A stretch of 64,000 bases of DNA from Octopus sinensis (lineage: Eukaryota), in contig NC_043001.1 in assembly GCF_006345805.1 (NCBI RefSeq), positions 118,482,001-118,546,000 of the forward strand, in the 5' to 3' direction. The notes under the pieces were generated by a model, which was not told where the DNA came from, ran no database searches, and saw only the letters and a list, made by a program, of their open reading frames with translations. Each line of letters begins with the position of its first letter. The first letter of the stretch is position 1. The translations under genes and the position numbers were made by a program. Positions 19,647 to 49,422 of the stretch are shown one piece after another.

Positions 19647-20047
19647 TAATAATAATAATAATAATAATTGTGTACAGTGCTCAGGTGCACTACAACTCAT
19701 CTAAAGTGTATATATAATCAGGTGTAGTTTCGACGGATTTCGGGAAGCATGAGGGCCTTAAAGGATGCAGTGTCATGGCAGTCAACAACTGATGCAGGCA
19801 GTTTATTCCATGCTTCAGCAACTCTGAGCGTGAAAAAATGTTTCCGAAAGTCATGGGAGCTGTGCTGTTTTCTGACTTTGTAGGCATGTCCACGTGTGTT
19901 AGACACATGGAGATCAAAAAGGTGTTCAGTGTTGTTGTTGGTGAGGTGGTTGATAACCTTGTGGGTGTTTACCAAGTCCGTCGCTAGACGCCGGAGCTTC
20001 AGTGAATCCATGCCCAGGGAAACAAGGCGCTCAGAATATGGTAGGTG
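19647..20047 (-). mobile_element. CR1/L2-like LINE 3' end
   Basis: LPYSERLVSLGMDSLKLRRLATDL...TRGHAYKV...RKHFFTLRVAEAWNKLP, short 3' UTR, (ATT)n tail. Confidence 0.9.
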
Positions 20048-21660
20048 AGGAATGTCATATTCCAAGCTATTTTTTGTTGACATATGTCAAGTTTATTGAG
20101 ACAGCATGACTTTCAGAAAACACCAGTTTTATTTTTTGGTAGATATTTAGCATCATTACTGGAATAACCATGAAATGTAATTTTGCAGTCAAAGGTTATG
20201 TATTTGAAGCCTGTAACAATGAATTCTACCTCTTCATAGAATCTATTTGCAAAGATGACAGTGGCACTAGAGATCCTTTCCCCAGCCTTTATAAATCAGT
20301 AGATATATATTTTTATATATGGCATATTATGTTGATAGGTTATTTGTCATACCAACAGACAACTATCTCTACAAAAAGTTTTTACTCTCTGTAAAGAAGT
20401 GTCGGATGTGTGTGTGTACGCATGCATGCACGCACACACACACACACACACTGTTTAGTCTTGCTGAAGATACAGCATAGCTAAACAGTTGAGCAGTTTG
20501 CTTTCTGATCAAAATGTTTTGGGTTGAACCAAGCCTTGTACATGAAATTGGGAAAACTGAAGCTGTGTGGAAGCCAGTTAAATGGATTATATTTGTAATT
20601 GTGTCAAAATACACTCATTTCACTCTGAAGTGGCTGGTGATAGGAAGGCCATCCTGCTATGAAAACCATGCCAAAAGTGGAAGATGCTCCTGACCCATCT
20701 TGGAGGAGAGTAACTCAAAATAAGAACTGACTGAGCCATGATGGTCCTTATAGCTCATGCTAGCAAGGAGAGCAGACAGATAAGAATGATGATGATGATA
20801 GTTATTCTGGAAAATTAAAGCAACTAACATGAGAATATGGAAACTGTGGTTTTGTAGCCATTAGGCATGGAAGTTACTTGGAATATTAAGAGGGATAGTT
20901 ATATTCGAGCAGTGTTACATTCATTTTTATTCTCAAGAAAATCAGCCTTGATTGAACAAACCAATGATGAAAGGTATTCCAGTCATGATCATCATGTCTT
21001 TTGTATTTCAAGAACTATATTGTTTAATGTGATTTGAGGGAATTGGGCAGTTATTTTTAAAGGGTCAAGTTATTGTGTAGAGGTGCGCTCATTGATCTGG
21101 CCACATAGTTTGAACAGCAGAATATCAGATAATCAGTACAAGTGAAATGAAATAGTTTTGATGGGAGATTGAAACCATCTTGAAGTCTCAGCTTATTCAG
21201 GAACTTACATTATATCCTTCATTGGTCTATAAAGGCAATCCTCTTCAAGGTGCATACATTTGAACTTTCAAAAGTCTGGGGAGTTGAAAATTCTCTTCAT
21301 TTCATGCACACACATAACAAGTAGAAGCAAAAATTGAATGTATGAATTTTGGGGAACTGCCTGTACCAGCATGGTCTCATTGGTGTAATCTCCACAGCAG
21401 TTTCCACAAGAAACTACCAGTTAAACTCCTTACTGTTTTATGGTGGAGCTTGTTCACTCAATATGTAAGTTAACAACCTCCACCTTGTAATGTGTAACTT
21501 TAATTTACTTTGAGATTGTTATTATACAATTGAAATTTAATAATTTATTCAGTATACATTCAATGTTGTTCTGATTTGATAACTTCTGACAAGTAATATA
21601 AATAAAATAAAATTAATTTCATTAATATATATATATTTTTCACTCTCCCCAAACTTCCAG

Positions 21661-22855: not shown

Positions 22856-23219
22856 ACCTAATTCTTCTTGGGAAAAGTATGAATGTTGCAATTTCCATTT
22901 CTCCTTCCTAAAATATGAGTATGTGATATTTGTATCTAATCAAAAGAAACCAGTATTTATTGGTAAAATTTCACAAATGTTAACTTTTTGAAATAAAACC
23001 TAAAACTTGCATGTTTTCCTGTGTCATTTTATCCAGTTACATTATTCTGATCCCTATGACTGTTTTTTTTTTTCCCGTAAATCAATAAACTCTTCCAGTG
23101 ATACAATAAATACAGATGCCTGTGAAGCTAATTAAAGTAATTAATATATGTGAAAAAAACTTCTGATGAAATTGGTGACTTATAAATTTTTCAAACCTCT
23201 AATTTCCTCTCTGTTGTAG

Positions 23220-23448
23220 TTATGATGCCAAGAAGAAGTTCTACTGTCAAGTCTTGTCAACAGATAACACCAAGTGCCTTGGACCAGGCAAGGGCAGAGT
23301 ATATCCTCCTATGGAGGAATCAGCATACAGATTCTTGAAAATGTTCTTTCGCCGACACAATGTAGCTCTATCAAAATTACTTATGAAACTAAACCAAGCC
23401 ACTCCAGTACCGGCTTGGCTTAAAGAAGATCTCCAAGAAACCTTATAG
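23220..23448 (+). CDS. NDST: NDST terminal coding exon
   Basis: ttgtag| acceptor, phase 2. Translates YDAKKKFYCQVLSTDNTKCLGPGKGRVYPPMEESAYRFLKMFFRRHNVALSKLLMKLNQATPVPAWLKEDLQETL*; the C..C pair and KGRxY are conserved. Confidence 0.97.
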
Positions 23449-23635: not shown

Positions 23636-24032
23636 AATAAATGCATTATATAAACAGTCTCTACAATTTCCTACTCATTAACACATCAACTCTTTTCCTT
23701 CTCTGCCTCCCAAGCATTTTGATAAAGTCAATAGGAATATGAGGACTTTATGTTGTAAGAAAATTTAAGATATTTTTAAAATTCAATTTCTATAATTAAT
23801 CACATAAGCATTTATGAGAAGAACAAACCATCATTTCTCTCTCTCTCTCTATTTCTCATTATATTATCATCCTTCTTCACAATTACTACAGTAATACAAG
23901 TGAATACATTCTCATCTATGGAATGCTTAATATTTGAGTATAATTTGGTTGGTGTAAGTCTCATGCTATCAGGATTTGATGTATTTCAGCTATTCTTCTT
24001 CAATAAAATATTCCAGAGAATATCATGTGTGT

Positions 24033-24510: not shown

Positions 24511-24858
24511 ATAATCTGAAGCAAAGGAAATACAAATATCAATATACAACATAAGTATAAGGGGGCATTCATAGTTAATATTATTAGGTTGATGTTCAAG
24601 GAAAGAAGAAAAGTATATATTTATATATATATATATATATATATCTGAAGCAAAGGAAATACAAATATCAATATACAACATAAGTATTCATAGTTAATAT
24701 TATTAGGTTGATGTTCAAGGAAAGAAGAAAAGTATATATTTATATATATATATATATATATATAATCTGAAGCAAAGGAAATACAAATATCAATATACAA
24801 CATAAGTATTCATAGTTAATATTATTAGGTTGATGTTCAAGGAAAGAAGAAAAGTATA

Positions 24859-24906
<48 letters not shown>

Positions 24907-25001
24907 CTGAAGCAAGGAAATACAAATATCAATATACAACATAAGTATTCATAGTTAATATTATTAGGTTGATGTTCAAGAAAAGAAGAAAAGTATATAT
25001 T

Positions 25002-25058
<57 letters not shown>

Positions 25059-25151
25059 CTGAAGCAAAGGAAATACAAATATCAATATACAACATAAGTA
25101 TTCATAGTTAATATTATTAGGTTGATGTTCAAGAAAAGAAGAAAAGTATAT

Positions 25152-25198
<47 letters not shown>

Positions 25199-25425
25199 CT
25201 GAAGCAAAGGAAATACAAATATCAATATACAACATAAGTATTCATAGTTAATATTATTAGGTTGATGTTCAAGAAAAGAAGAAAAGTATATATTATATAT
25301 AATATATATATATATATATTATATATATATAATCTGAAGCAAAGGAAATACAAATATCAATATACAACATAAGTATTCATAGTTAATATTATTAGGTTGA
25401 TGTTCAAGAAAAGAAGAAAAGTATA

Positions 25426-25465
<40 letters not shown>

Positions 25466-25561
25466 CTGAAGCAAAGGAAATACAAATATCAATATACAAC
25501 ATAAGTATTCATAGTTAATATTATTAGGTTGATGTTCAAGAAAAGAAGAAAAGTATATATT

Positions 25562-25597
<36 letters not shown>

Positions 25598-25703
25598 ATA
25601 TATATATAATCTGAAGCAAAGGAAATACAAATATCAATATACAACATAAGTATTCATAGTTAATATTATTAGGTTGATGTTCAAGAAAAGAAAAGTATAT
25701 ATT

Positions 25704-25760
<57 letters not shown>

Positions 25761-25850
25761 CTGAAGCAAAGGAAATACAAATATCAATATACAACATAAG
25801 TATTCATAGTTAATATTATTAGGTTGATGTTCAAGGAAAGAAGAAAAGTA
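24511..25850. repeat. Compound tandem repeat: 10 copies of a ~100 bp unit, separated by (TA)n
   Basis: Unit ataatctgaagcaaaggaaatacaaatatc...ggttgatgttcaagRaaagaagaaaagtatatatt followed by a variable (TA)n tract. Confidence 0.95.
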
Positions 25851-26235
25851 TAATATTTCAAACATAGTTCTTTGTTGGATACTAGAGGAAAGTCCAGGAG
25901 GGACTAGGAAGGGACTAAAGGAGATAAAATGGAAAGCTTACGTAGAATACATGTGGGTTAGATTCACACGTGCACTAGCCAAAGTATCCCTGCATGGCAC
26001 TGTAGACAAGTGTCTTCTACTGTAGCTTTGAGTTGGTCTGACCAATGTCTTGTGTAGAGCTGGTAGATGAAAACTATGGAAGCTTGTTATATGCGTGTGC
26101 ACGTTTGAGAATGTTTACATTCCATGTCTCTGCATGAAAGCATCGAGCTAAAAACATTCCCTGTCAACAAATCATTTTTAGCTCTGCATTTCCAAAAACA
26201 AATGGAATAAAAGTCCCTTTCTAGAAAAACATGTG

Positions 26236-29200
26236 AAGGCTAATAGTTAGGGTGTTTTGGCTCACGATCACAAGGCTAATAGTTAGGGTGTTTCGGCTCA
26301 CGATCATAAGGCTAATAGTTAGGGTGTTTTGGCTCACGATCACAAGGCTAATAGTTAGGGTGTTTTGGCTCACGATCATAAGGCTAATAGTTAGGGTGTT
26401 TTGGCTCACGATCATAAGGCTAATAGTTAGGGTGTTTTGGCTCACGATCATAAGGCTAATAGTTAGGGTGTTTTGGCTCACGATCATAAGGCTAATAGTT
26501 AGGGTGTTTTGGCTCACGATCACAAGGCTAATAGTTAGGGTGTTTTGGCTCACGATCATAAGGCTAATAGTTAGGGGTTTTGGCTCACGATCATAGGCTA
26601 ATAGTTAGGGGTTTTGGCTCACGATCATAAGGCTAATAGTTAGGGTGTTGGCTCACGATCATAAGGCTAATAGTTAGGTGTTTTGGCTCACGATCACAAG
26701 GCTAATAGTTAGGGTGTTTGGCTCACGATCACAAGGCTAATAGTTAGGTGTTTTGGCTCACGATCACAAGGCTAATAGTTAGGGTGTTTTGGCTCACGAT
26801 CACAAGGCTCAATAGTTAGGGGTTTTTGGCTCACGATCACAAGGCTAATAGTTAGGGTGTTTGGCTCACGATCATAAGGCTAATAGTTAGGGTTGTTTGG
26901 CTCACGATCATAAGGCTAATAGTTAGGGTGTTTCGGCTCAAGATCATAAGGCTAATAGTAGGGTGTTCGCTCACGATCATAAGCTAATAGTTAGGGTGTT
27001 TTGGCTCACGATCACAAGGCTAATAGTTAGGGTGTTTTGGCTCACGATCACAAGGCTAATAGTTAGGGTGTTTTGGCTCACGATCACAAGGCTAATAGTT
27101 AGGGTGTTTGGCTCACGATCACAAGGCTAATAGTTAGGGTGTTTTGGCTCACGATCACAAGGCTAATAGTTAGGGTGTTTTGGCACGATCACAAGGCTAA
27201 TAGTTAGGGTTGTTTTGGCTCACGATCACAAGGCTAATAGTTAGGGTGTTTTGGCTCACGATCACAAGGCTAATAGTTAGGGTGTTTGGCTCACGATCAC
27301 AAGGCTAATAGTTAGGGTGTTGGCTCACGATCACAAGGCTAATAGTTAGGGTGTTTTGGCTCACGATCACAAGGCTAATAGTTAGGGTGTTTGGCTCACG
27401 ATCACAAGGCTAATAGTTAGGGTGTTTGGCTCACGATCACAAGGCTAATAGTTAGGGTGTTTTGGCTCACGATCACAAGGCTAATAGTTAGGGTGTTTGG
27501 CTCACGATCACAAGGCTAATAGTTAGGGGTTTTGGCTCACGATCACAAGGCTATATAGTTAGGGTGTTTTGGCTCACGATCATAGGCTAATAGTTAGGGT
27601 GTTTGGCTCACGATCACAAGGCTAATAGTTAGGGTGTTTTGGCTCACGATCACAAGGCTAATAGTTAGGGTGTTTTGGCTCACGATCACAAGGCTAATAG
27701 TTAGGGTGTTTTTGGCTCACGATCACAAGGCTAATAGTTAGGGTGTTTTGGCTCACGATCACAAGGCTAATAGTTAGGGTGTTTGGCTCACGATCACAAG
27801 GCAATAGTTAGGGTGTTTTGGCTCACGATCATAAGGCTAATAGTTAGGGTGTTTTGGCTCACGATCACAAGGCTAATAGTAGGGTGTTTGGCTCACGATC
27901 ATAAGGCTAATAGTTAGGTGTTTTGGCTCACGATCATAAGGCTAATAGTTAGGGTGTTTTGGCTCACGATCATAAGGCAATTTAGGGTGTTTTGGCTCAC
28001 ATCATAAGTATTAGGGTGTTTTGGCTCACGATCACAAGCTAATAGTTAGGGTTTTTGGCTCACGATCACAAGTTAGTTAGGTGTTTTGGCTCACGATCAC
28101 AAGGCTAATAGTTAGGGTGTTTTGGCTCACGATCACAAGGCTAATAGTTAGGGTGTTTTGGCTCACGATCATAAGGCTAATAGTTAGGGTGTTTTGGCTC
28201 ACGATCATAAGGCTAATAGTTAGGGTGTTTTGGCTCACGATCATAAGGCTAATAGTTAGGGTGTTCGGCTCAAGATCATAAGGCTAGTTTTTTCGGCTCA
28301 CGATCATAAGGCTAATAGTTAGGGTGTTTTGGCTCACGATCATAAGGCTAATAGTTAGGGTGTTTTGGCTCACGATCACAAGGCTAATAGTTAGGGTGTT
28401 TTGGCTCACGATCACAAGGCTAATAGTTAGGGTGTTTTGGCTCACGATCACAAGGCTATAGTTAGGGTGTTTTGGCTCACGATCACAAGGCTAATAGTTA
28501 GGGTGTTTTGCTCACGATCACAAGCTAATAGTTAGGGTGTTTTGGCTCACGATCACAAGGCTAATAGTTAGGGTGTTCTCACATCACAAGGCTAATAGTT
28601 AGGTGTTTTTGCTCACATCACAAGGCTAATAGTTAGGGTGTTTTGGCTCACGATCCAAGGCTAATAGTTAGGGTGTTTTGGCTCACGATCACAAGGCTAA
28701 TAGTTAGGGTGTTTTGGCTCACGATCACAAGGCTAATAGTTAGGGTGTTTTGGCTCACGATCACAAGGCTAATAGTTAGGGTGTTTTGGCTCACGATCAC
28801 AAGGCTAATAGTTAGGGTGTTTTGGGCTAATAGTTAGGGGTTTTTGGCTCACGATCACAAGGCTAATAGTTAGGGTGTTTTGGCTCACGATCATAAGGCT
28901 AATAGTTAGGTGTTTTGGCTCACGATCACAAGGCTAATAGTTAGGGGTTTTGGCTCACGATCACAGGCTAATAGTTAGGTTTTTTGGCTCACGATCACAA
29001 GGCTAATAGTTAGGGGTTTTGTGGCTCACGATCACAAGGCTAATAGTTAGGGTGTTTTGGCTCACGATCACAAGGCTAATAGTTAGGGTGTTTTGCTCAC
29101 GATCACAGGCAATAGTTAGGGTGTTTTGGCTCACGATCACAAGGCTAATAGTTAGGGTGTTTTTCTCACGATCACAAGGCTAATAGTTAGGGTTTTTCGG

Positions 29201-31764
29201 CTCACGATCATAAGGCTAATAGTTAGGTGTGTTCGGCTCACGATCACAAGGCTAATAGTTAGGGTGTTTTGGCTCACGATCACAAGGCTAATAGTTAGGG
29301 TGTTTTGGCTCACGATCACAAGGCTATAGTTAGGGTGTTTCGGCTCACGATCACAAGGCTAATAGTTAGGGTGTTTTCGCTCACGATCACAAGGCTAATA
29401 GTTAGGGTGTTGGCTCACGATCACAAGGCTAATATTGGGTGTTTTGGCTCACGATCACAAGGCTAATAGTTAGGGTGTTTTGGCTCACGATCACAAGCTA
29501 AGTTAGGGTGGTTTTTGGGCACGATCACAAGGCTAATAGTTAGGGTGTTTTTGGCTCACGATCACAAGGCTAATAGTTAGGGTGTTTTGGCTCACGATCA
29601 CAAGGCTATAGTTAGGGTGTTTTGGCTCACGATCACAAGGCTAATAGTTAGGGTGTTTGGCTCACATCACAAGGCTATAGTTAGGTTGTTTTGGCTCACG
29701 ATCACAAGGCTAATAGTTAGGGTTGTTTTGGCTCACGATCACAAGGCTAATAGTTAGGGTGTTTTTGGCTCACGTCACAAGGCTAATATTAGGGTGTTTT
29801 GGCTCACGATCATAAGGCTAATAGTTAGGTGTTTTGGCTCACTATATAAGGCTCATAGTAGGTGTGCTCACGATCATAAGGCTAATATTAGGGTGGTTGG
29901 CTCACGATCACAAGCTAATAGTTAGGGGTTTTGGCTACGATCACAAGGCTAATAGTTAGGGTGTTTTGCTCACGATACAAGGCTAATAGTTAGGGTGTTT
30001 TGGCTCACGATCACCCAAAAACGGCTAATAGTGGGGGTGTTTTGCTACGATCAAAAGGCTAATAGTGGGTGTTTGTTCTCACGATCTAGGCTAATAGTTA
30101 GGGTGTTTTGGTCAGATCATAAGGCTAATAGTTAGGGGTTTTGCTCATCATAAGGCTTAATTAGAGTGTTTCGGCTCACAGATCATAAGGCTAATAGTTA
30201 GGGTGTTTGGCTCACGATCACAGGCTAATAGTTAGGGTGTTTTGGCTCACGATCACAAGGCTATAGTTAGGGTGTTTTGGCTCACGATCACAGGCTAATA
30301 GTTAGGTGTGTTTTGGCTCGATCACAAGGCTAATAGTTAGGTGTTTTGGCTCACGATCACAAGGCTAATAGTTAGGGTTTTTGGCTCACGATCACAAGGC
30401 TAATAGTTAGGGTGTTTTGGCTCACGATCACAAGGCTATAGTTAGGGTGTTTTGGCTCACGATCCAAGGCTTAGTTAGGGTGTTTTGGCTCAACGATCAC
30501 AAGGCTAATAGTTAGGGTGTTTTGGCTCACGATCACAAGGCTAATAGTTAGGGTGTTTTGGCTCACGATCACAAGGCTAATAGTTAGGGTGTTTTGGCTC
30601 ACGATCACAAGGCTATAGTTAGGGTGTTTTGGCTCACGATCACAAGGCTAATAGTTAGGGTGTTTTGGCTCACGATCACAAGGCTAATAGTTAGGGTGTT
30701 TTGGCTCACGATCAAAGGCTAATAGTTAGGGTGTTTTGGCTCACGATCACAAGGCTAATAGTTAGGGTGTTTTTGGCTCACGATCAAAGGCTAATAGTTA
30801 GGGTGTTTTGGCTCACGATCACAAGGCTAATAGTTAGGTGTTTTGGCTCACGATCACAAGGCTAATAGTTAGGGTGTTTGGCTCACGATCACAAGGCTAT
30901 AGTTAGGGTGTTTTGGCTCACGATCACAAGGCTAATAGTTAGGGTGTTTTTGGCTCACGATCACAAGGCTAATAGTTAGGGTGTTTTTGGCTCACGATCA
31001 CAAGGCTAATAGTTAGGGTGTTTTGGCTCACGATCACAAGGCTAATAGTTAGGGTGTTTTGGCTCACGATCACAAGGCTAATAGTTAGGGTTTTCGGCTC
31101 AAGATCATAAGGCTAATAGTTAGGGTTGTTTCGGCTCACGATCATAAGGCTAATAGTTAGGGTGTTTCGGCTCACGATCATAAGGCTAATAGTTAGGGTG
31201 TTTCGGCTCACGATCACAAGGCTAATAGTTAGGGTGTTTCGGCTCACGATCACAAGGCTAATAGTTAGGGTGTTTCGGCTCACGATCACAAGGCTAATAG
31301 TTAGGGTGTTTCGGCTCACGATCACAAGGCTAATAGTTAGGGTGTTTTGGCTCACGATCACAAGGCTAATAGTTAGGGTGTTTTGGCTCACGATCACAAG
31401 GCTAATAGTTAGGGTGTTTTGGCTCACGATCACAAGGCTAATAGTTAGGGTGTTTTGGCTCACGATCACAAGGCTAATAGTTAGGGTGTTTTGGCTCACG
31501 ATCACAAGGCTAATAGTTAGGGTGTTTTGGCTCACGATCACAAGGCTAATAGTTAGGGTGTTTTGGCTCACGATCACAAGGCTAATAGTTAGGGTTTTTT
31601 GGCTCACGATCACAAGGCTAATAGTTAGGGTGTTTTTGGCTCACGATCACAAGGCTAATAGTTAGGGTGTTTTGGCTCACGATCACAAGGCTAATAGTTA
31701 GGGTGTTTTGGCTCACGATCACAAGGCTAATAGTTAGGGTGTTTTGGCTCACGATCATAAGGCT
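26236..31764 (+). repeat. 36-bp satellite, ~150 copies
   Basis: Unit AAGGCTAATAGTTAGGGTGTTT(T/C)GGCTCACGATCA(C/T), containing one TTAGGG per unit. Confidence 0.98.
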
Positions 31765-32168
31765 GTGGGTTGAAATCTTGGATCAAGCAGCACATTGTGT
31801 TCTTGTGCAAAGTTCTTCACGTTGCTGCAGTCAGTCTGCTTAGCTCCCAAATGATTACCAGCTGAGTGGTCGTTTGGCTCCCTTTCCTTCCAGCTATTGC
31901 ACATCATAGGGGTATTGCTAGGTTCAGAGGATAGGAGTAGTTGAGAGGGTGTTTGTCTGCTGACAACTACATAGGGACCCTAACATAATTAGTAAACTGT
32001 ACATTTTACAAAGCCATTCTCATTCACAGGTGACAGTTGAGTCTTTATTATTTTACTCAGGAAACAGATAAGGGTAAGCCACAAAGAATGAGTTTGGTTA
32101 TAAAACAGTGCCTGTATATGTAGTTAGCATATTAGCATAGAAAATGGATGTAAACTGAATGAATACAC

Positions 32169-32674: not shown

Positions 32675-32830
32675 GGAGTGGCTGTGTGGTAAATAGCTTG
32701 TCTACCAACCACATGGTTCCGGGTTCAGTCCCACTGCGTGGCACCTTGGGCAAGTGTCTTCTACTATAGCCTCGGGCTGACCAAAGCCTTGTGAGTGGAT
32801 TTGGTAGATGGAAACTGAAAGAAGCCCGTC

Positions 32831-34042: not shown

Positions 34043-34707
34043 ATAATAATAATAATAATAATAATTGTGTACAGTGCTCAGGTGCACTACAACTCATCTA
34101 AAGTGTATATATAATCAGGTGTAGTTTCGGTGGATTTCGGAAAGCATGAGGGCCTTAAAAGATGCAGTGTCATGGCAGTCAACAACTGACGCAGGCAGTT
34201 TATTCCATGCTTCAGCAACTCTGAGCGTGAAAAAATGTTTCCGAAAGTCATGGGAGCTGTATTGTTTTCTGACTTTGTAGGCATGTCCACGTGTGTTAGA
34301 CACATGGAGATCAAAAAGGTGTTCAGTGTTGTTGTTGGTGAGGTGGTTGATAACTTTGTAGGTGTTTACCAAGTCCGTCGCCAAACGCCGGAGCTTCAGT
34401 GAATCCATGCCCAGGGAAACAAGGCGCTCAGAATATGGTAGGTGTCTGATGGAGGGTATGCGTTTGGTTGCACGTCTCTGGACAGATTCCAGGAGGTCAA
34501 TGTTCTGTGCAAGATAGGGGTTCCAAACTGATGATGCGAATTCCAAGTGTGGTCGTACCATAGCTGTATACAGTTTTAAATAGATGGCTGGAGAGCGGCT
34601 AACAAAAGACCTGCTGAGTGATGCCAAGACACCCTCGGCCTTCCTGACAATCTTAGAGATATGCTTTGACCAACGCAAATCACTGCTGACAGTGATGCCT
34701 AGGTCAC
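34043..34707 (-). mobile_element. CR1/L2-like LINE 3' portion
   Basis: Open frame DLGITVSSDLRWSKHI...LYTAMVRPHLEFASSVWNPY...WNKLP, (ATT)n tail. Near-identical to the copies at 19647 and 47771. Confidence 0.92.
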
Positions 34708-37064
34708 ATGTGTGGAGAGATGAGAGTATAATGATAGTAACAGTGGAACTGAAATGCAATTGCTAGAAATGTTCAGTTTTATAATTTCCTATGATAAATA
34801 AGTTAGATAAATGGAATTTTCAAAAGAATTTTTAATGTGTGTAGAAGCAAGAAACTGAAAAACTAGTGACTAGATGCAGTGGATTAACGACTGACTAATT
34901 AGCAATATGTAACTAACAACAATATTGTTCATAAATTGCAATATAAAAAAAAAAAAAAGAATTCAGAGAATTCTTTGTATATTTGTGTAGAGTTAGATCA
35001 GATGATCTGAGACTGGGAATCTTATATATTTCCAGTTACTCCATTGGGAACTAATTCTGCCTGTTATCAGTTGAGTAAGTTATGTGCCTACTCTAATGAT
35101 ATAGCACAATAACTGAAGCTAGGATTGAACCCAAGTCCAAGTGATCAGTAATTTAGTACCTCAGTCTTACAGTCAATACTTACAGTAGTCTAAATTTGCA
35201 AGCTGCAATAGTATGTTAAAACAACCTGCGTATACCAGCGTGTGTATGTGTAATGTAATATTTAGTGTTATTAATTAGTATAGATCATAAACATTTACTG
35301 ATTGTGGAGCTCTGTACTGGTAACAGAGTTGAGATTGTCATACAAGTTTCATCTAAAAGCTTATTCAACCAGAGTATTTATGCGCGCACACATACGGAGT
35401 TGTTCCAGTACTCTCATCTGAAATTGAGTACCAGTGAGTCTTGGAGGATCACCTTACTGTGGTCTGACATCCTGTTCAGAGGGAAGAAATGATCTTGTAC
35501 TCCAGGCCAAAATGTCTTGAAAACCTAGATAAGCGCAGCCTCATCGTCCGGCTTCAGGGAGATAACTCTGTATTGTTTCGATTTTAGCTCTCAAATATGA
35601 CTTGCTACGGTTTCCATCCAATATTGGTGAAAGGTTTGAGGGAGAAAAGCAACATTAAGTCGTGTGTCGATATCTCATGTTCAACTTTGATATTTTCGTT
35701 TTTCAAGCAATAACATTTTTATAATTCTGTATGATTTTGTTGATTTTTCTTTTCATTTATTAAACAAACTTACGTTTATGGGTTTTTTATAGTTATTCCA
35801 GTTTTTGTTCTTTTTTTGTCGTTTTATTTGCTATATATATTTTTAGTTTACAGGCAAGGGTGTATGGTTAGGAAATTCACTTCATATGGCCCCGTTGTGT
35901 ATCATCTTTGGCATTCTACCCTAGCAATTGACTGATTAATGCATTGTGAGCAAAACTGGCTCATGGAAATTGTGTGGCTTATTTTGTGAATGTGTGTTTG
36001 TGCTTGTATAGGTATGTCTCTGTGTTTGCCTCAATGCTGGCATTACTTGAAAAAAAAAAGTGTTCTATGATTGTCCTGTAATTTAATGCAACAAATAGAG
36101 ATTACTAACATAAGTGCCTGACTTAAAAATAAGTAGGGCCTCCATCAGTAAAGATTGATCATACAACTGCACATGAATGCATAGGCCTGGGTGAAATTTT
36201 TTCAGGAAGACTGGCTTCTCCTCATCATGATACCAAAGCCTTTCAAAGAAAAGGCCCTTTGACTTGAGCTGAAAAGGTTTGGCACCAGTGTTGTCATAGC
36301 TACAAGTAGCCTAAATAGATTCTACAAGGCTTAACCTTCTGACAGTTCAGTCAGTCCACTATCCTAGACTGATACTTTGTCTCTGAAAGGATCAAAGGCA
36401 AAGTTGACTTCGGCAGTATTTGAACTCAGAGTGCCCGGTGTCTGAACAAATTCTGTGTGACATTTTGCCAAACCCTCAAGTGAATATTTTAATTTACTTT
36501 TTTAAGAATGAGTACTGGTGCCAATATAACAGAGAGTCTATAAAACCCTTCAAGGTGGCACCCTAGCATGGCTGCAGTCCAATAGCAGTGTCATTGGTTG
36601 TAGGTTCCCAATGGAATGGTGAATGATCCACTGCATTTTTAATGGTAAAAATGTCAAGAGACTCTGTACACCTGAAGCAAAACAAATATCATTGGGTTTT
36701 TAGTTTAAAAGTACTGATCTATTAGATTTATCTTTACACCTTGGTTTGCATTTTTACATCTTTCACCATTATACATTAGCAAAACACATGTGCACACGCA
36801 CACACATACATACATTGTCATCATAGTCTTTCTCAGATCTGAGAAATGTCCTGCTTACTTCTTTTGTTTTTGTTTCATTTTCTCTATATGGGCTCCTGGG
36901 TAACAATGGTGACCCAGTTTTGAGATACAAGGACTTTTTCAGTATAAATTAATGGTGCATAAAGTAATCTACTATTCTATAACTGAGGTATCTTTTCAAG
37001 ACTTGATGAACAACAAACTGTTACAAAAATTCAGTGGTAACTCCTGTCCAACTTGAAAAATATA

Positions 37065-38493: not shown

Positions 38494-38652
38494 TTAGCTT
38501 GAGTATAGCTGGGTAAAATATGAACTTAGCTTGAGTATAGCTGGGTAAAATATGAACTTAGCTTGAGTATAGCTGGGTAAAATATGAACTTAGCTTGAGT
38601 ATAGCTGGGTAAAATATGAACTTAGCTTGAGTATAGCTGGGTAAAATATGAA
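38494..38652. repeat. 32-bp minisatellite, ~5 identical copies
   Basis: ttagcttgagtatagctgggtaaaatatgaac repeated five times (last copy one base short). Confidence 0.95.
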
Positions 38653-41277: not shown

Positions 41278-41529
41278 CACTTTGTCAGCTGCGACGATGA
41301 GTGTTCCAGTTGCTCTGATCAACAGAACAGCCTACTCATGAAATTAATGTGCAAATGGTTGAGCTCTCCATAGACACACACATCTTTAAAAGGAAGATAC
41401 AGAATGACACAGAATGTGACGAGGCTGGAGCAAGCTGAAATAAAGTGTCTTGTTCAAGGATAAGTGTCACAAGGAATCAAACTCATGCCTTTGCGATCAT
41501 GAGCCGAATAACCTAACCACTAAGCCACA
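41278..41529 (-). mobile_element. tRNA-derived SINE, monomeric relative of the 36-bp satellite
   Basis: Minus strand reads gtggcttagtggttaggttattcggctcatgatcgcaaaggcatgagtttgattcc (A box, anticodon arm, B box), then tccttgaacaagacac. Confidence 0.8.
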
Positions 41530-41949
41530 GGTTAAAATACAAAGATTATATGAGGAGAGCAGATAAGAAGAGACTGACATGGTGATCCATGATTTTGAGC
41601 CTGCTGAGACCAGACAATTCAAGATGATCGGGGGTGGGGACTGGTGCTTTAGTACAATGATACAATGATATGCAATCTTTCATGGATGATATATTCTTTT
41701 ATTCTCTTCACATGGAAAACTTGATAGACCACAAGCTATAAAATTACTTTTAATTGTATTATGTAACAACACAGTAGGCCATAAAACTGGCTGTGGACCA
41801 TAAAAACTCTGATATGGACAGCTGGTGGTCCACCTGTTCTCTGATGTGGTATCACTACTTTGTGAGTAATGAGTCTAATGATGGCTCAAGGGAGGATACT
41901 CAGGAAATTTAATTCATTCTAATAAAGATTCAGAGTTTTATTTTTTTTT

Positions 41950-47770: not shown

Positions 47771-48287
47771 TAATAATAATGATAATAATAATAATTGTGT
47801 ACAGTGCTCAGGTGCACTATTACTCATCTAAAGTGTATATATAATCAGGTGTAGTTTTGGCGGATTTCGGAAAGCATGAGTGCCTTAAAGGATGCAGTGT
47901 CATGGCAGTCAACAACTGATGCAGGCAGTTTATTCCATGCTTCAGCAACTCTGAGCGTGAAAAAATGTTTCCGAAAGTCATGGGAGCTGAGTTGTTTTCT
48001 GACTTTGTAGGCATGTCCACGTGTGTTAGACACATGGAGATCAACATGGTGTTCAGTGTTGTTGGTGAGGTGGTTGATAACTTTGTGGGTGTTTACCAAG
48101 TCCGTCGCCAGACGCCGGAGCTTCAGTGAATCCATGCCCAGGGAAACAAGGCGCTCAGAATATGGTAGGTGTCTGATGGAGGGTATGCGTTTGGTTGCAC
48201 GTCTCTGGACAGATTCCAGGAGGTCAATGTTCTGAGCAAGATAGGGGTTCCAAACTGATGATGCGAATTCCAAGTGTGGTCGTACCA
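47771..48287 (-). mobile_element. CR1/L2-like LINE 3' portion
   Basis: VRPHLEFASSVWNPY...WNKLP...NYT*, (ATT)n tail. Confidence 0.92.
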
Positions 48288-49422
48288 CACTTGGAATTTT
48301 GTGCAGAGGCCTTGACTATTTCAACTTTTTTTTCTATGCATAATGTGTCTATATCTATATTATCTAATGCATGCTCTGTTCCTAAGATAGCAGGGTGCAA
48401 GTTGTAGAAGATTTGGTTGGTGTTATAACAAATCAAGTGAATATCTAGAGGTTTCCTTATCGCACTAATGTTATATGTTTGTGTTCTATAACCCCAAGTC
48501 AGCTTTGATCAAACAGTCCTTTGATACCCAGTTATTTGGCAGATCCATCTTCCCATTTATATAATTCCTCCACTTAACTGAAGGTAGTTAAAACGCGAGA
48601 AAGAGGAGAAAAAAAGGTAATGTAAGGGAGGTAACTGTAGATTTTTATAAAGTGTGATTGTTTTTATTTATTTTTTTTTTCTCGTTACACAGAAAAACAA
48701 ACAATAGAAAATTTAAATATTTAATATATCTTCTCAGATATCACTAAACAGATGCTGAAACGTTCGGGCAGATATTTCAACCAAAAACACTTGAAAAGCC
48801 AGAGAAAGTAAATAAGTGTCAAGGGAGGTAATCGATAGACATTTGTCAAAATCTTTTCTTTTTTCTGTCCGTTTCGTTGGCATCAAATGAGAGAAAGAGC
48901 AAAGATATCCTTATATTTCATATGATATCTGAAATAACCCTTGCCGGCTACGCTATGTACTATGAAGGAGCCTTAGGTTATGAACTAGAAGAGGATAAGC
49001 TGTAAGTAAACCATTGGCTTTGACAGAATCTAAATATTTCTCAATTGTTTCGTCCAACTTCCGTGAAAAGAGACAAAAAACGTTTCTCGAATGAAATCAA
49101 TCGATGTTTTGCACCAATAAAGACAGAAACGATTACGATAATGATGATATAGTTTGAAAATATAGATAATGAATTTTATATAATACATCAAAAAAGAGAG
49201 AAAAAGAGAAGAACAAAGGACGGCGGCGATTGTCGATAAACAACATCTGTTATGAAATGTGATCCAGAAATTGCTTTTATGTTCCGCCCTCAGAATCAAT
49301 CAATCACTCAATTATGGTCACGGTTTCTTTTTTGGGGGAAGTTATATATAAACAGCAATTGAAAATATATTTGATTGAGCTTCGATTCACCCCTTCCTCT
49401 GTGTGTTTGTGTGTGTGTATGC

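Follow-up and report, generated by a model that had tools for sequence, protein, structure and literature searches.

How does a fragment of a transposable element become a tandem array several kilobases long, and does the array do anything once it is there? The question is raised by a repeat downstream of an NDST gene in a 64,000 nt stretch of Octopus sinensis contig NC_043001.1 (positions 118,482,001 to 118,546,000, forward strand), which we refer to as the window. An earlier sequence-only reading described the repeat as a satellite born from the tRNA-like head of a single short interspersed element (SINE), carrying about 150 A boxes and one B box of the RNA polymerase III (Pol III) promoter, and proposed that it might bind TFIIIC, act as an insulator or yield multimeric tRNA-half-like RNAs. 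We put at roughly 85 % the probability of an account that keeps the origin in a single SINE, in which the repeat is a single-locus 36 bp minisatellite within one decayed copy of a tRNA-derived SINE, likely seeded between two copies of the hexamer AAGGCT, likely enlarged in recent times as blocks of units were duplicated, and probably devoid of any Pol III function.

Structure, uniqueness and parentage of the array

The assembly does contain the array, at positions 26236–31764 on the plus strand. Tandem Repeats Finder (TRF) returned a period of 36, a copy number of 156.2 and 89 % matches, and wrap-around alignment resolved 157 whole units, corresponding to the D-arm and anticodon-arm region of the SINE head, closed by a 6 bp partial unit, AAGGCT. 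At least four middle units arranged head to tail define a SINE-derived tandem repeat, and 157 were present here. The modal unit, AAGGCTAATAGTTAGGGTGTTTTGGCTCACGATCAC, accounted for 44 of 138 exact split pieces, and the variant quoted in the sequence-only reading, with C at position 23 and T at position 36, proved to be a minor form. Relative to the modal unit, the array carries 86 substitutions, 153 deleted bases and 24 inserted bases. Two columns hold 50 of the substitutions, namely position 36 (C/T, 35 units) and position 23 (T/C, 15 units), and the indels are concentrated in the interior, with none in the first nine units, one in the last 16 and 176 in the inner 132. We infer that most of these indels represent uncorrected long-read error, in which case the units are probably more alike in the animal itself than the 89 % figure suggests. 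The T36 variants are clustered, forming 23 adjacent pairs against a mean of 8.4 and a maximum of 16 in 2000 shuffles; one triple variant is seen again in units 20, 58 and 139, and the order of variants in units 1–21 is similar to that in units 44–59.

Other properties of the array follow from its unit. It contains 136 TTAGGG words, an inheritance from the D-loop region of the SINE family, 163 CpGs and 148 GATC sites, the last of which could deplete it in restriction-based libraries. Open frames with 12-residue repeats on both strands are a consequence of the 36 bp unit. A G-quadruplex was considered and rejected, the G4Hunter-type mean of 0.39 and best window of 0.72 lying below what we take to be the usual threshold.

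Within the 2.72 Gb genome, all 95 matches to a 20-mer of the unit fell inside the array (the reversed control gave none), and a three-unit query returned one candidate region. A widespread or multi-locus satellite family was rejected on this evidence, although an incomplete assembly could hide further loci, and the array is best described as a single-locus minisatellite. The size of the unit likewise places it among the minisatellites, or variable number tandem repeats.

The last whole unit (31723–31758, plus strand) has T at position 36 like the SINE family, and beyond the closing AAGGCT the sequence continues as the single-copy rest of the host SINE (31765–31856, plus strand), comprising the T-arm region and the body. 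The family is dispersed, with 273 and 4,392 first-look candidates of which 40 were scored in each case; among the 40 scored of the 273, the last unit with its tail aligned with copies on many contigs at 73–83 %. A profile of model length 161 was built from 15 dispersed copies found via the tail. The locus collapsed to a single unit matched it collinearly over model positions 15–147 (89.0 bits, E 2.8e-26), as the sequence-only reading had anticipated, with the unit itself at approximately model 11–46, that is, the D arm and anticodon arm. The repeated unit is thus homologous to part of a SINE, and its terminal copy runs on into that SINE. The match ends at model 147 and the 3′ part of the family is missing; at the other end, positions 26222–26235 (plus strand) may be a remnant of the SINE 5′ start, a stretch that the nhmmer envelope includes although the nhmmer alignment does not, and whose own alignment is ambiguous.

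A second SINE in the window, on the minus strand at 41285–41532, had been aligned with the unit by the sequence-only reading. Its head is indeed related, being identical to the last unit in 30 of 41 columns, but the copy scored 54.2 bits against the family profile and was rejected as the parent of the array in favour of membership in a sister subfamily. A profile made from tail-found copies favours the array's tail over this copy, which weighs against ranking the two by score; the assignment stands despite this bias because the body of the 41 kb copy diverges in the alignment too.

The host SINE family head is, by comparison of its profile with tRNA sequences, tRNA-related. Fifteen of 23 distinct tRNAs from the genome scored against the profile, whereas 50 shuffles reached at most 1.9 bits. 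The best was Phe(GAA) at 18.0 bits, in a sample outside which several isotypes lie, and Arg(TCT) aligned without gaps over model 10–66 at 12.7 bits. Searches of the window with ARAGORN and Rfam yielded neither a tRNA nor any other credible RNA family; the highest-scoring Rfam matches, to microRNA models, lay on TA/TG repeats, and none reached its gathering score. When 20 SINE loci were searched with Rfam, the sole tRNA among the 150 matches listed of 222 was a genuine tRNA-Leu gene; this gene, tRNA-Leu(TAA), lies at L052 2927–3009 on the minus strand, close to two SINE copies. A pattern for the junction of anticodon arm to A box had no matches genome-wide. The body of the host SINE resembles a CORE domain, which is about 60 bp long, and assignment to the octopus CORE-SINEs OR1 or OR2 is a tentative lead. 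The order of tRNA head followed by body is shared with OR1 and OR2, which are named in PMC4824008 and PMC4758252.

Probable seeding and expansion, and length variation

As the sequence-only reading pointed out, the array starts and ends at the same hexamer. The 5′ AAGGCT (26236–26241, plus strand) and the 3′ AAGGCT (31759–31764, plus strand, at the start of the variable-loop region) stand where the family has GTGGCT, or GGAGGC if an 8 bp deletion is assumed, and AAGATT or AAGGTT, respectively, so the direct repeat is not ancestral and is private to this copy. Only three of 34 dispersed heads have any word of at least six letters in common between the two regions. Loss of 8 bp following GGAGGC, with which the family begins, would be enough to yield the 5′ AAGGCT, and other alignments fit equally; that 5′ copy could instead be left over from a previous round of duplication and deletion, which speaks against it as the seed.

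A 6 bp repeat around a 36 bp motif fits the model in which minisatellites are born between direct repeats of 5–10 bp (PMC6947457, PMC3389668). On such a model the SINE would have inserted approximately 2.8 kb past the NDST stop codon and then decayed, private changes leaving two AAGGCT copies at a spacing of 36 bp. Misalignment between these copies, by slippage or unequal exchange, would have made two units, and unequal exchange or gene conversion may then have amplified blocks of units and left the variants clustered, with copy number now differing among related animals. All units carry the decay of this copy, which places expansion after decay, and the clustered variants and the recurring triple variant fit block duplication.

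The first duplication might instead have arisen during retrotransposition, as a reiterated 5′ head, or via a shorter GGCT match, leaving the 6 bp repeat a by-product. At three other loci in the genome (an array of 18 units of 34 bp on C1, L118 and L122) the head is reiterated from its very 5′ end without a flanking repeat, and the family has AAGGCT at neither site, with few heads sharing a long word between them. We nonetheless consider such an origin improbable, since the units share private decay (A-box changes and an extra T) that points to amplification after decay and not at insertion, and since a related animal appears to carry the 6 bp repeat around a single unit.

That animal is represented by run X7, one of four runs out of 24 compared over 25860–26313 (flank plus two units). 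A single 571 nt contig of X7 spans 25860–26277 with 12 differences and one gap, at a depth of 11.1 that stays flat over the unit, and none of the listed differences falls in the 5′ AAGGCT. A further 72 letters remain unaligned after 26277, the last base common to the reference and a one-unit allele. Because the contig parts from the reference at the very position expected for the start of the SINE tail, X7 likely holds a single-unit allele. Two points count against giving this allele full weight: the SINE tail is deduced from where the match ends and not from the 72 loose letters, and the allele could be a contraction and not the ancestral state.

In X3 and X4, flank contigs end at 26265, the point at which tandem repetition causes branching of the 31-mer graph, and contigs crossing the unit junction are present. 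Depths of 54 and 38.4 in X4, against 8.1 in the flank, correspond to roughly six units, and X19, at a depth of 3.7, is ambiguous between one and two. The listed X3 flank contigs differ from the window by one letter; this run may come from the source sample itself, or its library may be biased. Contig depth is not an exact copy number and short high-depth unitigs may be left out, so that these counts are rough. Unit number clearly varies among related animals, with one unit in X7 by the reasoning above, about six in X4, several or more in X3 and 157 in the assembly.

The figure of 157 units comes from the assembly alone and short-read depth does not confirm it. In X3 the unit depths add up to no more than about 21 times the flank depth, nowhere near 157, and the inner 132 units contain 176 of the 177 indels; together these observations tell against the assembled length and leave both it and the inner sequence uncertain. 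The length may thus have been inflated by assembly, for example from two alleles or mis-joined long reads, with real alleles of one to a few tens of units. The low count in X4, the deletion-dominated noise (153 deletions to 24 insertions) confined to the interior and the resemblance of units 1–21 to units 44–59 would all suit such an error. Long reads through a genuine array would, however, leave the same noise, depth is subject to the limits given above, and the library type of X3 is not on record, each unit having a GATC site (148 in the array) of the sort cut in some libraries. We regard inflation as unlikely but as a real possibility; it agrees with the minisatellite origin proposed here in everything save the number.

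Collinearity of the collapsed locus, uniqueness of the unit and the likely one-unit allele of X7 together lend some support to a birth of the array between the 6 bp direct repeats. The origin story of the sequence-only reading was therefore largely right, and gains support from a likely orthologous allele; descent from one SINE copy holds, but by unit size the product is a minisatellite, and its birth is not an exceptional event.

Promoter remnants and function

The A box of Pol III promoters follows a TRGYNNARYNGG-type consensus. On the sense strand, none of the 157 units matches it, strictly or loosely, compared with 22 of the 34 dispersed heads. The ten bases ggttgaaatc at 31768–31777 (plus strand) are present as the sequence-only reading gave them, but we annotate this B box, GGTTGAAATC, as decayed. 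Its core reads GTTGAAATC at 31769–31777, with G at 31772 in the assembly sequence in place of the conserved C56, and the pattern GTTCRANNC had no sense-strand match in 26001–32100 and one antisense match. The supposed 150 A boxes and one B box are accordingly descendants of those motifs that no longer match the consensus. In Dictyostelium, C56G in GTTCRANNC abolishes TFIIIC-dependent integration of TRE5-A (PMC5391098). Runs of four T number 123 on the sense strand of the array, most units carrying one; A4/T4 is the minimal Pol III terminator in human (PMC5095917), a threshold that may not be this animal's. RNA folding was no better than for shuffles (z 0.47, 0.30, −0.86, −0.53 and 0.94), the single-unit fold (z 0.47) showed no anticodon hairpin, and a structured RNA from the array was rejected.

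These features bear directly on the idea that the array is a Pol III/TFIIIC platform, serving as an insulator next to NDST or giving rise to multimeric tRNA-half RNAs. The unit does descend from the D-arm and anticodon-arm region of a tRNA and the array does lie 2.8 kb from NDST. A strict B box, GWTCRANNC, occurs in four of the 34 dispersed heads, and TTCRANNC in 24, so that a non-canonical B box is tolerated in the family and the consensus test is blunt for it, which lessens the force of the negative result. Loss of the A box, C56>G in the only B box, the T4 runs and poor folding nonetheless make TFIIIC binding, insulation and multimeric tRNA-half RNAs unlikely, and one unit apparently suffices in X7. 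We judge the platform very improbable, its function finding no support in the sequence. The array is probably a neutral, functionless variable repeat, neutrality being the default reading.

Surroundings, recurrence and relation to known systems

The array does lie downstream of NDST, matches to PF12062 (94.6 bits) and PF00685 (21.3 bits, where the cut-off is 22) being found upstream of it. A stop-to-stop frame at 23203–23448 on the plus strand contains the presumed last coding exon, assigned by its likeness to the NDST C-terminus and itself without a Pfam match. The array starts 2,788 bp past the presumed stop codon at 23448. In between lie AATAAA sites at 23636, 24002, 24381 and 26206 and a second tandem repeat (24567–25858) of approximately eight 140 bp units with an inner (TA)n. 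Another very abundant short interspersed repeat flanks the array at 25990–26075 and 32734–32816, the two copies being 75 % alike. Elsewhere in the window, a perfect repeat of five 32 bp units occupies 38494–38652, and three closely similar frames on the minus strand (19718–20086, 34115–34762 and 47845–48315), of which one was scanned without a Pfam match, look to us like the 3′ end of a long interspersed element (LINE) reverse transcriptase, possibly of a recently active element.

Recurrence of head duplication was sought with two exact patterns, one of them covering 100 matches listed of 112, and one chance look. At least nine other loci carry a tandem duplication of the family head or of head plus body. 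The array on C1 (172.177–172.179 Mb, minus strand; L111–L117) consists of 18 units of 34 bp derived from the 5′ end of the element, contains 16 A-box matches and closes with a full-length SINE copy (156.7 bits); as far as motifs can indicate, it is a better multi-A-box Pol III candidate than the 157-unit array. On C25 at 24.21 Mb (L121/L126), an older, degenerate array of 15 units of 26 bp with A-box-like words ends in a weakly scoring SINE (10.3 bits). Two-copy duplications were found at L118, L119, L120, L122, L124 and L125, that at L120 with the 5 bp GGTTT at its breakpoints, and L075 1505–1830 holds 2.7 tandem copies of a 123 bp head-plus-body piece. A repeat of ten 18 bp units at L123 499–678, which contains CTCATGATCATAAG and resembles the SINE anticodon region, was excluded from this count as it had no profile match. 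Minisatellite birth in this SINE family is not exceptional, since it recurs in the genome and belongs to a published class.

A broader proposal would make the SINE head a repeated minisatellite seed by two routes, 5′-end reiteration at insertion and slippage at private repeats, with this locus having gone from one to about 150 units within approximately 3 % flank divergence and now being a length-variable cis-modifier of NDST through its TTAGGG words or CpGs and not through TFIIIC. Recurrent seeding is seen, but the regulatory role is without support, and we hold the proposal as a whole to be highly doubtful.

Among known systems, the SINE-derived satellites sSat1–3 of squamates, whose arrays reach 320, about 950 and more than 1200 units, are the closest parallel (PMC10702118). 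As here, they consist of tandemly repeated parts of tRNA-derived SINEs in which the terminal unit is longer and runs on into the SINE; they also have homogeneous units (in their hundreds), locus-specific variants, unit numbers that differ between orthologues, and a few long arrays among numerous short loci of two copies. Their units measure 70–290 nt and occur at many loci, whereas the octopus unit is 36 bp with one locus per unit type, and the snake unit includes the B box that the octopus unit excludes. The octopus array also differs in lying inside a contig of more than 118 Mb beside a gene. Human transposable element-derived minisatellites (7,276 arrays, 2,663 of them from Alu) and the Haber–Louis model share with it a single locus in a SINE, an incomplete last unit and short end repeats, but Alu-derived arrays average 2.3–2.4 units, against 157 in this assembly (PMC3389668, PMC6947457). 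Alu is 7SL-derived; the parent of the octopus array is tRNA-derived. Tandem tRNA-related sequence also forms the amphibian Pol III-type satellites (Xenopus satellite 1/OAX, Hy/Pol III and PolIII/TAN), but these have units of 200–360 nt or more, and in vitro transcription of PolIII/TAN is reported, whereas the octopus unit has no intact promoter element (PMC9659126, PMC10702118).

In the accessible literature on cephalopod minisatellites and SINEs and on octopus SINE-derived tandem satellites (Repbase, Dfam and subscription papers being outside its scope), the array was not described. It points to no new molecular system. PMC10702118 leaves open whether long SINE-derived arrays exist outside squamates, and the presence in this octopus genome of at least two clear ones, of 157 and 18 units, bears on that question. 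The locus is a clean example of minisatellite birth, for which the parent family and a series of alleles (a likely single-unit one, intermediate ones and a long one) are all within reach, such that the direct-repeat model is testable at one locus across a few populations. Its high variability could also make it useful as a marker in population studies.

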